64,000 bases of DNA from a virus (taxonomy: Duplodnaviria; Heunggongvirae; Uroviricota; Caudoviricetes): positions 1 through 64,000 of IMG/VR virus record IMGVR_UViG_2721755710_000007. The stretch is one strand, 5' to 3'. This document shows, one piece after another, positions 2,327 to 35,494 of the stretch. Each line of letters begins with the position of its first letter. Position 1 is the stretch's first letter. The notes beneath the pieces were generated by a model. The model was not told the origin of the DNA, searched no databases, and saw only the letters and a list, made by a program, of their open reading frames with translations. The translations under genes and the position numbers were made by a program.

Positions 2327-5300
2327 CTATATTTTTCCGCCTACGCCTTTAAACTTCTCAATAAACGAGACGATTTTCTGGAAAACTGCCTGTTTTTTCG
2401 TTTTATATTGCGGATTTAACGGACTAAGTTTTGGTAATGTTTCGTTTAATTCTGTGCCATTTTCGGTGGCATATTCGCGTTTTAAAGACGTGCGAATATA
2501 GCGTTTTGCTGCATCTTCATTGAGATTTTCTTCTTTTATCAATGCTTCTGCTTCACGTTGCTGTTCGCGTTGAGCAAACGTAAAGAATGCGTCAATGATG
2601 CTGGCTTTGTCCGGTAAATCATCCAGGTTCGTTTGCTGAATAAAATCGACCACCAGGCCCTCTTTAGCACGGTTCCCTAGGCTTGAACGAATTAAGCGTT
2701 TGACCTCTTCGATCATTTCGCCCTTGCCTTTATTTTGTCTGTTGTGTTCGAAAATCAGTCCAAGGATATAATCCAGGTTTATTTCCTGAGACTTCAGCAA
2801 ATCGACCTCAAAAACTACGTCATCCCAGTCAGTGGTTGATTTCTCTTTTTTCTCAGCTTCTTTCTCACGGCGCTGCCAGTCGCGAATATCGTTATAGGCA
2901 GAACGATAATCCTGAATCTTGCGATCAGCAGGGAGACGAATTGTTTGCAATTTAGCGAACTTTTCATCATCCACATAATGCTCTGCTTTGAATTTTTCTA
3001 CCGCAACAGGATCGCTAAGATCGATTTGTTGCAGGGCTTTTAGCGTGGCAAATTCATCATAGTTTTGCAGGATGTTCTCGGCACGCAGGTATTCGCCAAA
3101 CAGTTTAACGAAGTCTTTCTTCTCTTTTTCACTTTCAATACTGGTAGGGTCAGGGAACCGTTGTTCCAGTTCTGAAACTACTGTCATAAAGCCGCGTTTA
3201 GCTTCACCAGTAGCAGCATCAGTAAAGCCTTCCATATACTCTGTATAACTCTTTTCTAACACCACATTTTTGGTGTTTTTGTCACCAAACAGCGTTATGG
3301 CATCAATAGTTGAGCGTTCCAGATCCCGGAAAGTGACGATATTACCGAAGGTTTTAGTAGCGTCATAAATGCGGTTGGTGCGGGAAAATGCCTGCATCAG
3401 GCCGTGAAAACGCAAGTTTTTATCGACGAATAGCGTGTTCAATGTTGGAGCATCGAAGCCGGTTAAAAACATCCCCACGACGATTAACAAGTCAACATCC
3501 TGATTTTTAACCCGCTGAGCCAGGTCCCGATAGTAGTTCTGAAAACCCTTGCTATCAGTACTGAAATTCATTTGAAAATGGTCGTTATATTCACGAATTG
3601 CAGCATCCAGAAACTCTTTAGCACTGCTGTCCATTGCGCTGGTATCAAAAGTTTCATCGGAAATTTCACCAATGGCATTTTGTTCTTCATTAGCGGCAAA
3701 GGAGAAGATTGTCGCAACACGCAGCGGTTTATAGGTAGCCGATTTATTAGCGGCTTCTTCTTGTAACCGTTTAAACGTCGCATAATAGGCTTTCGCGGCA
3801 TCCACGCTGCTCACTGCCAGCATGGCATTAAAGCCTTTGGAGCCTGGGAAGGTACGGTGGGTTTTCTGGCGGAAGTTGTTCAGGATATATTGCGTGATTT
3901 CCTGAATACGCATGGGATGAAGAAACGCCTGCTGATTTTCAGCCGCACTCAGTTTTTTCTCGTCAGTTTCTGTCTCTAAAGACTTAAACTGTGGCCGCAC
4001 ATCGTTGTAGTCCACCTTGAATTTGAGCACTTTTTCGTCACGAATCGCATCGGTAATTACATACGAATGCAATTCACGACCAAATACGCTGGCGGTTGTT
4101 TCTGAGCCTAAGGCGTTTTCCGGGAAAATAGGGGTGCCGGTAAAACCAAACTGATAATAGCGTTTGAATTTCTTCTTCAGGTTTTTCTGCGCTTCTCCAA
4201 ACTGGCTGCGGTGGCATTCATCAAATATAAACACCACTTGCTGATTATATACAGGCAGGTCGCTTTCTGCTTTCATCAGATTATTGAGTTTCTGAATAGT
4301 AGTGACGATAATTTTGTTATCGTCCTTATCCAGATTTCGTTTAAGGCCTGCGGTATTTTCCGAGCCGTTGACGCTGTCTGGCGAAAAACGCTGATATTCC
4401 TTCATGGTCTGGTAATCGAGGTCTTTCCTGTCGACCACAAAGAAGACTTTATCAATAAAGTCCAGCTCTGTTGCCAGACGCGCGGCTTTAAAGCTGGTGA
4501 GGGTTTTACCAGAACCGGTAGTGTGCCAGATATACCCACCGCTTTCCGGTTTTGACCAGTTCTTCGCTGTAAAGGAACTCTTAATTTTCCACAGAATGCG
4601 CTCGGTGGCGGCAATCTGGTACGGTCGCATCACCAGTAGCGTCTGACTACTGTCAAAAACGCTGTAGTTCACCAGAACATTCAGCAGAGTATGTTTCTGG
4701 AAAAAGGTAGCGGTAAAGTCTTTGAGGTCTTTAATCAGCGTGTTGTCTGATTTCGCCCAATTCATGGTGAAGTCAAAACTGTTTTTATCGCGCTTTGTCG
4801 TGTTGGCAAAATAACGGGTATCGGTGCCGTTAGAAATGACAAACAGTTGCAGATACTTAAACAGGGAATTTTCGCTGTTAAAACTCTCTTTACTGTAACG
4901 ATGTATCTGGTTGAAAGCCTCACGAATCGCCACCCCGCGTTTTTTTAGTTCGATTTGCACCAGCGGTAAACCATTAACCAGGATCGTGACGTCATAACGA
5001 TTAGCATGAGAACCCGTCTGTTCAAACTGCTGGATAATCTGCACCTTATTGCGCATGAGATTCTTTTTATCTATCAAATAGATGTTCTCAAGTCGCTCGT
5101 CATCAAAAATAAAGTCGCAAATATAGTCGATATGGATTTTACGGGTCTTATCCAGAATGCCATCGCTCGGGTTGTCCAGATACTGCTCCGTGAAACGCCG
5201 CCACTCGCTGTCATTAAACACCACACCATTGAGGCTCTGAAGCTGTTGTCGAACATTGGCCAGCATCGCCGACTGAGATTTTACGGATATAAATTCATAG

Positions 5301-13644: not shown

Positions 13645-14008
13645 AATTATGCCTCACTGTATTGACAACACAGAGCCTGAAGCTCTGACCTACTGTTTCA
13701 CCCATGATCCATGCTGGGGTAATCTAACAACATTGCGCTGTGTGTAAGATGAGCAATGCGGTGATGCTGCCAACTTACTGATTTAGTGTATGATGGTGTT
13801 TTTGAGGTGCTCCAGTGGCTTCTGTTTCTATCAGCTGTCCCTCCTGTTCAGCTACTGACGGGGTGGTGCGTAACGGCAAAAGCACCGCCGGACATCAGCG
13901 CTATCTCTGCTCTCACTGCCGTAAAACATGGCAACTGCAGTTCACTTACACCGCTTCTCAACCCGGTACGCACCAGAAAATCATTGATATGGCCATGAAT
14001 GGCGTTGG

Positions 14009-15461
<1,453 letters not shown>

Positions 15462-33177: not shown

Positions 33178-33455
33178 GTGACCTCCTGATGTGAAATCAC
33201 TATACCGAAGTGGTTTTTATTTTTTTTCACAAACAGGACTTTTTTCAGTGATTTTTTTCTGAGAATTATGAGGGGCGTGTCGTTGGTGCGATGCATACCG
33301 ATAGTGAATAACACCAGATGAGCTCGGGAACGGCATAGCGGGGTGTACTTATGTTCGGCAGAAAAGTAGCTTTTTCTGCAATGGGTATTCCTGATCCGGT
33401 GATTTGAAAAGTGCTGTTTTACTTACTAAGTTATACATATATCTAGTGCCACTTT

Positions 33456-33612
33456 TTAATCAAAAGTGACCCTAGGTTTTTTGCGCATAGTGCCACTTTT
33501 TAAAAAAGTGACCCTATGTCCTGTCTACATAGGGTCACTTTTCACAAAGAAGTGACCCTATGTCGAGGCTCCATAGGGCCACTTTTCAGCAAAAAGTGAC
33601 CCTATGTAATAG
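33456..33612. repeat. array of four tandem palindromic units (core AAAAGTGACCCTATGT / ACATAGGGTCACTTTT)
   Basis: Units begin near 33456, 33489, 33527, 33571; each has 12-14 bp inverted arms around a short spacer. Confidence 0.8.
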
Positions 33613-34189
33613 CCATTGTTAATCAATCGGAAAAATATTCATGCTAGCTCGCTCTTATCGCTAAGGTTATTGCTGCTTTCTGCCGATAACAGTGCAAGTT
33701 TTGCGATTTTTTTAAGCGCTTCACAGTTCGTTAGCAAGCTCAGTTTTTTTTGATAAAATTCTGGTCAGTTTGTTTAAAAAGTGTTACAAGTAAGGCGAAT
33801 GGTTGAATGGTTAGTTTTAAGACTCAAATCGGCAGTATTAAAATTCCAAAAGTAGCTTTTCATACTTCAAAAAACCAAACTTTAATTTCATGTAGAAGAG
33901 TTGTACTATTGTATTGACTCAAGGACAATCCGACATGTCAGAATCAGATAACATAACGCGTAACTATTACGTACCGAGGTTTCGATTATTCGTAGTTACC
34001 GTGCATTCCTAATGTTATTGCCTATCCATGATCTTCTTCGTATCAATCAGGGTCTCCACTCTTGCAACGCCGTCTATTTGGAGACGGATTTGGGACAATG
34101 ACTGATAATGCATTTGAAGTTGAAACTCGTCCGGGAAGTTTCCTCGTTCCACGTTCTTTAGGCAAAGAGATTTCCTGGGATAATTTTTT

Positions 34190-34720
34190 ATGGCTGTTGT
34201 CGATGGTGACACTAACGTTATTCGAGAATATGACAGTGACGATGCTGACTTCGGTATTTACAATGCTGGGGAAAAAGTTACTTTACTGTGTGGCCGGGAA
34301 GACTTTTATAATCCGACAAAAATTCAGCAGTTACGCTCTAAGTGTGTAGATATACAAAATGATTACTTTATTCAAATCTTCTTTATGTCAATGCTTGCAC
34401 CTGAGTTTGTCAGCATATTTTTTGGATTAAAGCCTGCCACCGCAGATGCAATAAAAGATGTTGGCGTTTCATCACTTAAAGCAATTAACGATGTTGTTCT
34501 CTTTCCGCGAACAATTGCCTTTACGCCAGGACTGGGGGATGATAGCACTACGTTAAAATCTAAAGTATTCGCCAGGGCATACGAATTATCTGCCGACATT
34601 CGTTTGGGTAAAGTTAGTGATGACTTAATGGAACTACTGCGTTACGACACTATGTTTACGTGTCACCGTCAGGATGTGTTTAACTCATTAGCAAATAAAG
34701 TGCTCTTGAAGGATTATTGA
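34190..34720 (+). CDS. hypothetical protein, 176 aa (an upstream out-of-frame ORF 34062-34349 may be a frameshifted N-terminus)
   Basis: ORF divergent from the two-gene operon; ends 7 bp before IS1 copy 3. Confidence 0.4.
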   Translation: MAVVDGDTNVIREYDSDDADFGIYNAGEKVTLLCGREDFYNPTKIQQLRSKCVDIQNDYFIQIFFMSMLAPEFVSIFFGLKPATADAIKDVGVSSLKAINDVVLFPRTIAFTPGLGDDSTTLKSKVFARAYELSADIRLGKVSDDLMELLRYDTMFTCHRQDVFNSLANKVLLKDY

Positions 34721-34726
34721 ATATGG

Positions 34727-35494
34727 GGTAATGACTCCAACTTATTGATAGTGTTTTATGTTCAGATAATGCCCGATGACTTTGTCATGCAGCTCCACCG
34801 ATTTTGAGAACGACAGCGACTTCCGTCCCAGCCGTGCCAGGTGCTGCCTCAGATTCAGGTTATGCCGCTCAATTCGCTGCGTATATCGCTTGCTGATTAC
34901 GTGCAGCTTTCCCTTCAGGCGGGATTCATACAGCGGCCAGCCATCCGTCATCCATATCACCACGTCAAAGGGTGACAGCAGGCTCATAAGACGCCCCAGC
35001 GTCGCCATAGTGCGTTCACCGAATACGTGCGCAACAACCGTCTTCCGGAGACTGTCATACGCGTAAAACAGCCAGCGCTGGCGCGATTTAGCCCCGACAT
35101 AGCCCCACTGTTCGTCCATTTCCGCGCAGACGATGACGTCACTGCCCGGCTGTATGCGCGAGGTTACCGACTGCGGCCTGAGTTTTTTAAGTGACGTAAA
35201 ATCGTGTTGAGGCCAACGCCCATAATGCGGGCAGTTGCCCGGCATCCAACGCCATTCATGGCCATATCAATGATTTTCTGGTGCGTACCGGGTTGAGAAG
35301 CGGTGTAAGTGAACTGCAGTTGCCATGTTTTACGGCAGTGAGAGCAGAGATAGCGCTGATGTCCGGCGGTGCTTTTGCCGTTACGCACCACCCCGTCAGT
35401 AGCTGAACAGGAGGGACAGCTGATAGAAACAGAAGCCACTGGAGCACCTCAAAAACACCATCATACACTAAATCAGTAAGTTGGCAGCATCACC
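34727..35494 (-). mobile_element. IS1, copy 3
   Basis: Identical to copy 2, same orientation, with insA/insB ORFs (35164-35439, 34742-35245). Confidence 0.95.

Follow-up and report, generated by a model that had tools for sequence, protein, structure and literature searches.

The DNA stretch analyzed here, hereafter the window, is 64,000 nucleotides long and is P1/P7-like on both sides of a module bordered by two copies of IS1 (31169–31936 and 34727–35494), which lie on the minus strand in the same orientation. The module is 100% identical to IncY plasmid A of E. coli D5 (NZ_CP010146.1). It comprises three features on the minus strand and one on the plus strand, with a repeat array between the two divergent groups. 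On the minus strand are the remnant of a MobH relaxase gene, traI (31937–31962), which by comparison with longer copies elsewhere retains its first 8 codons and is cut by the left IS1; a gene for a 240-residue protein (31973–32695), homologous to R0121 of plasmid R27; and traH/mobI (32692–33177), which encodes a 161-residue MobI-family relaxosome accessory protein, the homologue of R27 TraH (R0122). On the plus strand lies a trhR pseudogene (33936–34720). In R27, R0122 is named traH and described as a relaxosome protein, R0121 is part of the H operon, and R0123 is trhR (PMC7366339). The array begins 266 bp upstream from the 161-residue gene, whose start codon ends at 33177; its other end is 330 bp short of the position at which the trhR start codon originally lay (33936).

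The assignment of the 161-residue protein to the MobI family is supported by a match to Pfam PF19456 (E = 1.4e-20, 74 bits against a cut-off of 26.6) that covers profile positions 1–115 of 116. The protein is 82% identical to R27 TraH and carries the PGAP name MobI(A/C). Its AlphaFold (AF2) model consists of a helix (residues 3–43), three strands and a second helix (residues 117–160), with the strands at low confidence (mean pLDDT 65). A fold search with this model was uninformative; the predicted succession of helix, three strands and helix is the layout reported for MobI of IncC plasmids (PMC13635750). The 240-residue protein is predicted to adopt the fold of AcaB, a ribbon-helix-helix-related activator of IncC conjugation (PMC8373056). 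It has no Pfam or NCBIfam match, and a profile search of PDB sequences misses AcaB (6n8b) even at E ≤ 10. Because sequence homology is undetectable, we describe the protein as AcaB-like in predicted fold only and do not file it as a member of the AcaB family.

Both an early stop (codon 7) and an insertion of 23 bp interrupt the trhR copy, which is for this reason a pseudogene. Its upstream 90 codons are still recognizable, and a 176-residue open reading frame (34190–34720), which begins 584 bp beyond the array, corresponds to TrhR residues 91–266, the C-terminal two thirds of the protein, with 88% identity to R27 TrhR. Many E. coli plasmids carry the same open reading frame under the label hypothetical protein. 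The right IS1 directly follows the trhR stop codon, and trhY, the next gene of full copies, is absent. In the whole window, no relaxase beyond the 8 codons, coupling protein, TrhY or pilus genes were found.

The left IS1 is 98.8% identical to the IS1 of P1 over 768 bp. The window holds three IS1 copies in total, the third being located at 13760–14527 and inverted relative to the other two. The module is not a P1/P7 feature, as a phage collection matches it only at the IS1 ends, nor does it occupy the IS1 locus of P1 itself. Because its flanks are unlike isaA/isaB and no target-site duplication is shared by the IS1 pair, we attribute its arrival to an IS1-mediated rearrangement rather than to simple composite transposition. 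Judged by its sequence and gene order, the module is a decayed segment of an IncHI Tra1 region.

The array is made up of eight 15-bp half-sites with the consensus AAAAGTGACCCTATG, spanning 33442–33606 in strictly alternating orientation: 33442–33456 (−), 33462–33476 (+), 33486–33500 (−), 33504–33518 (+), 33528–33542 (−), 33548–33562 (+), 33572–33586 (−) and 33592–33606 (+). Because the series opens with a minus and closes with a plus half-site, the natural palindromic unit is CATAGGGTCACTTTT-N3-5-AAAAGTGACCCTATG. Four such units of ~34 bp follow one another with center spacings of 43, 43 and 44 bp, about four helical turns. Unit 1, proximal to traH (33442–33476), combines TCTAGTGCCACTTTT and AAAAGTGACCCTAGG around an inner spacer of 5 bp; unit 2 (33486–33518) reads CATAGTGCCACTTTT-N3-AAAAGTGACCCTATG, unit 3 (33528–33562) CATAGGGTCACTTTT-N5-AGAAGTGACCCTATG and the distal unit 4 (33572–33606) CATAGGGCCACTTTT-N5-AAAAGTGACCCTATG. 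Unit 4 is the least conserved of the four and is missing in a Photorhabdus relative, which has three units only. The initial annotation had recognized four tandem palindromic units from the sequence, and the half-site scan and shuffles bear this out with a slightly shifted register. Its pairing of AGTGACCCTATGT with ACATAGGGTCACTTT around a short spacer used the same half-sites in an alternative register; written as AGTGACCCTATGT-N7-9-ACATAGGGTCACTTT, this pairing yields three full units and leaves two orphan half-sites.

The 15-mer occurs ten times in the window when as many as 3 mismatches are allowed, and seven of these matches fall inside the array cluster. Dinucleotide-shuffled sequences contain 1.72 matches on average and 5 at most, and none of the 100 shuffles reaches 10. 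The clustering of the half-sites is far beyond chance. No further copy of the motif was found in the window, its P1-like par and immunity parts included, in agreement with the remark in the initial annotation that the repeats do not resemble P1 sites. The array segment also folds strongly when treated as single-stranded DNA (z = −9.0 versus shuffles). A structured RNA was considered and rejected: an Rfam scan of 31500–35200 at a permissive threshold returned only sub-threshold chance matches of microRNA and sRNA families on the hairpins, there is no terminator, and the arm mismatches of units 1 and 2 (GGCAC versus GACCC) are conserved across clades and uncompensated.

The gene arrangement around the array recurs in transfer regions of the IncHI type. 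Less truncated E. coli plasmid copies have, on one side of the array and pointing away from it, mobI, the 240-residue gene and mobH, and on the other side trhR, the next gene (trhY) and trhF. IncHI1 plasmids (pB71 and R27), the IncHI2 plasmid pSA186_MCR1, related megaplasmids and pMB3888B_1 have the complete arrangement in the same order. There, the H operon consists of traH-R0121-traI-traG and the R operon of trhR-trhY; the array lies between them, directly upstream of traH/mobI. The closest relatives of the module (≥99% identity) are found in 155 PLSDB records, mostly E. coli plasmids of ~100 kb with an IncHI1B-type replicon and an IS1-truncated relaxase gene.

The intergenic region of R27 is base-for-base identical to that of pB71, and the array corresponds to R27 positions 108435–108579. 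The eight half-sites are in the same order in these plasmids and in the window, and 118 of the 120 half-site positions are identical. The half-sites of the window array are thus 98% identical to those of the R27-like plasmid and 92% identical to those of IncHI2. When window 32692–33935 was compared with PLSDB by megablast, about one thousand IncHI2 plasmids matched only 33428–33587 (query 737–896); R478 (NC_005211, IncHI2) is matched over this same segment. On pB71 (190,730 bp), the half-site with up to 2 mismatches occurs nowhere outside the array.

A four-way alignment compared this intergenic region with its counterparts in a K. oxytoca megaplasmid, an R27-like plasmid and an IncHI2 plasmid, whose TraH proteins are 92%, 82% and 76% identical, respectively, to the one encoded in the window. 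Invariant columns amount to 108 of 120 in the half-sites, 12 of 44 in the array spacers and 303 of 594 in the rest of the intergenic region, that is, 90% of half-site columns versus 27% of spacer columns (Fisher p about 1e-14 versus the spacers and 4e-17 versus the rest of the intergenic region). This contrast indicates, from the alignment, that the half-sites are under strong purifying selection while the spacers are free. Departures from the consensus are conserved as well: the GGCAC variant of the minus half-site in unit 1 is kept in IncHI1 and Photorhabdus, and IncHI2 plasmids keep GGCAC in unit 1 and GTCAC in unit 2. Constrained half-sites, free spacers, palindromy and a spacing of about four turns together form the signature of a multi-site target for a dimeric, sequence-specific DNA-binding protein whose gene is a neighbor of the array, and to this extent the initial annotation is upheld.

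The same annotation also proposed that such a target could be centromere-like. An array of evenly spaced repeats on one helical face does superficially resemble a site for partition, or the iterons of a replication or incompatibility region. However, the module contains no ParA/ParM, adaptor or rep gene, the neighboring genes are transfer genes, and on the R27-like pB71 the motif occurs neither at the two par loci nor in the replicons. We therefore abandon the centromere proposal and regard a partition or iteron function as very improbable.

A role in transcription deserves more weight. The array sits between two divergent operons, H (traH) and R (trhR), and could control them as an upstream activating site or a set of operators, read either by TrhR/TrhY or by TraH or R0121 in autoregulation. 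Relaxosome accessory proteins of other systems often autoregulate, which counts for such a function, as does the similarity of the 240-residue protein, in its predicted fold, to the transcription activator AcaB. TrhR/TrhY are known activators of the H operon, but they also activate the F, AC and Z operons (PMC7366339), yet the half-site is unique to the array on the 190-kb R27-like plasmid. In the window, moreover, trhR is a pseudogene and trhY is absent. A TrhR/TrhY activator site is thus unlikely. The distances also speak against a control site: at least 230 bp separate it from the likely traH −10 element, and no candidate trhR promoter is closer than 125 bp, so that a classic promoter operator is not indicated. 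A promoter consensus scan found none inside the array; the nearest candidates lie at 33731–33759 and 33817–33844, in a scan that gave no more hits than shuffled sequences, and a conserved TATAGT motif precedes the traH ATG by ~30 bp. Autoregulation by TraH or R0121 is possible and would be compatible with a role of the array in transfer. Taken as the main function of the array, transcriptional control seems to us rather unlikely.

What the conserved neighborhood points to instead is an origin of transfer. The oriT of R27 is placed directly next to the MobI-like gene traH in the accounts given by PMC10838148 and by PMC13635750, the latter citing Lawley 2002, and R27 TraH is referred to there as a MobI-like mobilization factor (PMC13635750). 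The window shares this neighborhood, with trhR facing the group of traH/mobI, R0121 and traI across the array. By homology, the array is a close counterpart of the known, experimentally mapped oriT region of R27, and the kind of element is already known. The repeats accordingly match a known family, in the sense that they are homologous to the traH-trhR interval of R27 and IncHI2 plasmids. We propose, with a probability of roughly three in four, that the array forms the conserved core, acting in cis, of a MOBH11 oriT region of the IncHI type, at which a relaxosome would assemble. Several differences from R27 should be kept in mind: R27 has full transfer genes, whereas the window lacks relaxase, coupling protein, TrhY and pilus genes and has a broken trhR; its host replicon is a P1-like IncY plasmid, whereas R27 is IncHI1; and the two TraH proteins are only 82% identical.

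The traH side of the array contains a further conserved element. A 19-bp block, AAGTTATACATATATCTAG (33428–33446), abuts unit 1 and is invariant in the alignments across the module, IncHI1, IncHI2 and Photorhabdus; it falls within the sole segment that megablast aligned to IncHI2 plasmids. A search for a MOBH11 nic consensus found none. From its conservation and position, the block is a candidate for nic or for another core oriT sequence.

MobI of IncC plasmids offers a guide to how such a region may work. [quoted passage not shown] The reported AlphaFold dimer of IncC MobI has two long helices per subunit and two three-stranded sheets on a positively charged face (PMC13635750). A two-fold symmetric, multimerizing dimer of this kind agrees with an arrangement of four palindromes along one side of the helix. 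By analogy, each ~34-bp palindrome of the window array could be bound by a dimer of TraH/MobI, of the AcaB-fold 240-residue protein, or of both. With four units about four helical turns apart, the dimers would be aligned on one DNA face and could build a higher-order relaxosome scaffold, which would in turn bring TraI, the MobH relaxase, to a nic site close by, possibly inside the invariant block 33428–33446. The homology of the array, its location, the constraint on its half-sites and its uniqueness on the plasmid come directly from the sequence comparisons; binding by TraH, recruitment of TraI and the location of nic we infer from these parallels. In every lineage examined, the array is accompanied by the genes for both TraH and the 240-residue protein; because these are always paired, co-occurrence does not separate the two as the binder. 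The traH gene adjoins the array, and the requirement for TraH in transfer is known from the literature for the R27 protein rather than for this copy.

The comparison with IncA/C plasmids and the SXT/R391 elements (MOBH12; PMC5587640; Ceccarelli 2008) bears on this model in both directions. There too, the oriT is AT-rich and laden with repeats and has a MobI-family gene as its immediate neighbor, and MobI is thought to recognize oriT and to recruit the MobH relaxase, much as suggested here for TraH. The oriT of IncC, however, is ~150 bp long, abuts mobI and contains short inverted repeats of 4–7 bp with overlapping 14-bp direct repeats (PMC5587640), whereas the window has four long 34-bp palindromes that lie more than 260 bp from the accessory gene. 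We count this distance against the oriT assignment, given that the essential IncC oriT abuts mobI. No AcaB-fold gene adjoins mobI in IncC, unlike in the window.

Phased arrays of sites for oligomeric accessory proteins are found next to nic in other transfer systems, such as the TraM sites sbmA-C and the TraY sites of F and the TrwA sba sites of R388, and these proteins are often autoregulatory. The proteins and sequences of F and R388 are unrelated to those of the window, and their relaxases belong to MOBF.

Counterparts of the array outside the IncHI plasmids show how far the association between array and genes extends. MobI homologues with 35–42% identity, encoded on Klebsiella IncFIB plasmids and in Pluralibacter, are accompanied by four analogous palindromic units, 44–56 bp apart, built on the altered half-site AAAAGTTACCAATG; the architecture has thus outlasted a change in its sequence, which we count as a sign of function. 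In K. pneumoniae pL5201 (IncFIB; 4515–4692) and in Pluralibacter gergoviae, the units occur together with mobI and a homologue of the 240-residue gene, and without a relaxase gene. The 240-residue gene accompanies mobI in IncHI plasmids, does so in the Klebsiella remnant as well (hhalign probability 96.6%) and, on weak evidence, probably also in a Vibrio locus. On this Vibrio hepatarius contig, eight 18-bp direct repeats with the core TCGGCACCGAACT (957–1447) lie upstream of a MobI with 32% identity and alternate between spacings of ~55 and ~88 bp, a different architecture at the equivalent position. A tblastn search returned ~1,180 PLSDB records with a MobI match below 60% identity, and the sampled ones were Klebsiella plasmids of the pL5201 type. 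The P0023 locus, with a MobI of 59% identity, is a frameshift-ridden assembly and gave no useful alignment. The recurrence of the same trio in an independent remnant suggests that array, mobI and the 240-residue gene are retained as a cassette after IncHI-like transfer regions decay.

The decay seen in the window itself could be read differently, namely that the array is an inactive fossil on the P1-like plasmid, left over from a decayed IncHI1B-type plasmid and carried along by an IS1 rearrangement. The state of the module lends this some credence: only 8 codons of the relaxase gene survive, trhR is disrupted, neither trhY nor the T4SS genes are present, the IS1 pair has no target duplication, and all copies with at least 99% identity are in similarly truncated contexts beside IS1. 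MOB-suite likewise types the plasmid identical to the window as non-mobilizable. Yet the open reading frames of traH and the 240-residue protein are intact, the half-sites are 97–98% identical to those of functional IncHI1 plasmids, and the independent Klebsiella remnant has kept array, mobI and the 240-residue homologue but lost the relaxase. An oriT, furthermore, needs only a helper supplied in trans. On balance, we consider it unlikely that the array is a mere fossil.

If the array is an oriT, the cassette cannot transfer alone, because relaxase, coupling protein and pilus genes are missing. By analogy with known mobilizable elements, it could make the P1-like plasmid mobilizable in trans by a co-resident IncHI plasmid. 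Islands of the MGIVchHai6 type (PMC7449626) likewise carry an oriT and a cognate mobI without relaxase or T4SS and depend on a helper of the same MOBH family. Those islands, however, are integrative and their mobilization by IncC is demonstrated, whereas here the carrier is a phage-derived plasmid and the IncHI helper is a presumed one. A more tentative extension, which we think possible but doubtful, is that array, traH and the AcaB-fold gene form a self-sufficient cassette of oriT plus specificity factor that is selectively retained after decay, as in the E. coli and Klebsiella remnants, and that would provide the P1-like replicon with a second transfer route through the relaxase and pilus of an IncHI plasmid.

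A related and equally tentative possibility concerns a second, dispersed motif. A 13-bp near-palindrome, AAAAGTAGCTTTT, lies on the traH side of the array (33362–33374) and is repeated on the trhR side (33848–33860); a third window copy, with 1 mismatch, is located at 34273–34285. Both belong to a motif that is scattered over IncHI backbones. On pB71 (190,730 bp), its palindromic form AAAAGTWACTTTT occurs in 24 exact copies and in 40 when up to one mismatch is allowed, whereas Markov models of order 1–5 predict fewer than 0.1. About half of the copies are intergenic and promoter-proximal, some lie just inside gene starts, and both IncHI2 and the K. oxytoca plasmid retain copies. A literal search of a paper library for the half-site and AAAAGTWACTTTT sequences found nothing relevant. 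AAAAGTWACTTTT may be the operator of a plasmid-wide regulator. It has the core AAAAGTnAC in common with the array half-site, and the two could share a reader; if so, this would tie the oriT into a plasmid-wide regulatory network.

About 1,400 PLSDB plasmids carry the array, and 62 of them, NZ_CP010146.1 included, are typed as non-mobilizable. NZ_CP010146.1 and the 61 other records carry traH as well as the array, and mobilizability through an oriT alone is not captured by their MOB-suite typing. The gain of oriT or mob functions by P1-derived plasmids has already been reported (Pfeifer and Rocha 2024; PMC10879196). The repeats of the window would be of a known kind, an IncHI transfer origin, and neither a new centromere nor a new operator. 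For the poorly characterized MOBH11 relaxosome, the array offers exact predictions in the form of eight 15-bp half-sites, two candidate binding proteins and one candidate nic block. For plasmids at large, those derived from P1 included, typing as non-mobilizable may underestimate their capacity to spread when an IncHI helper is present.
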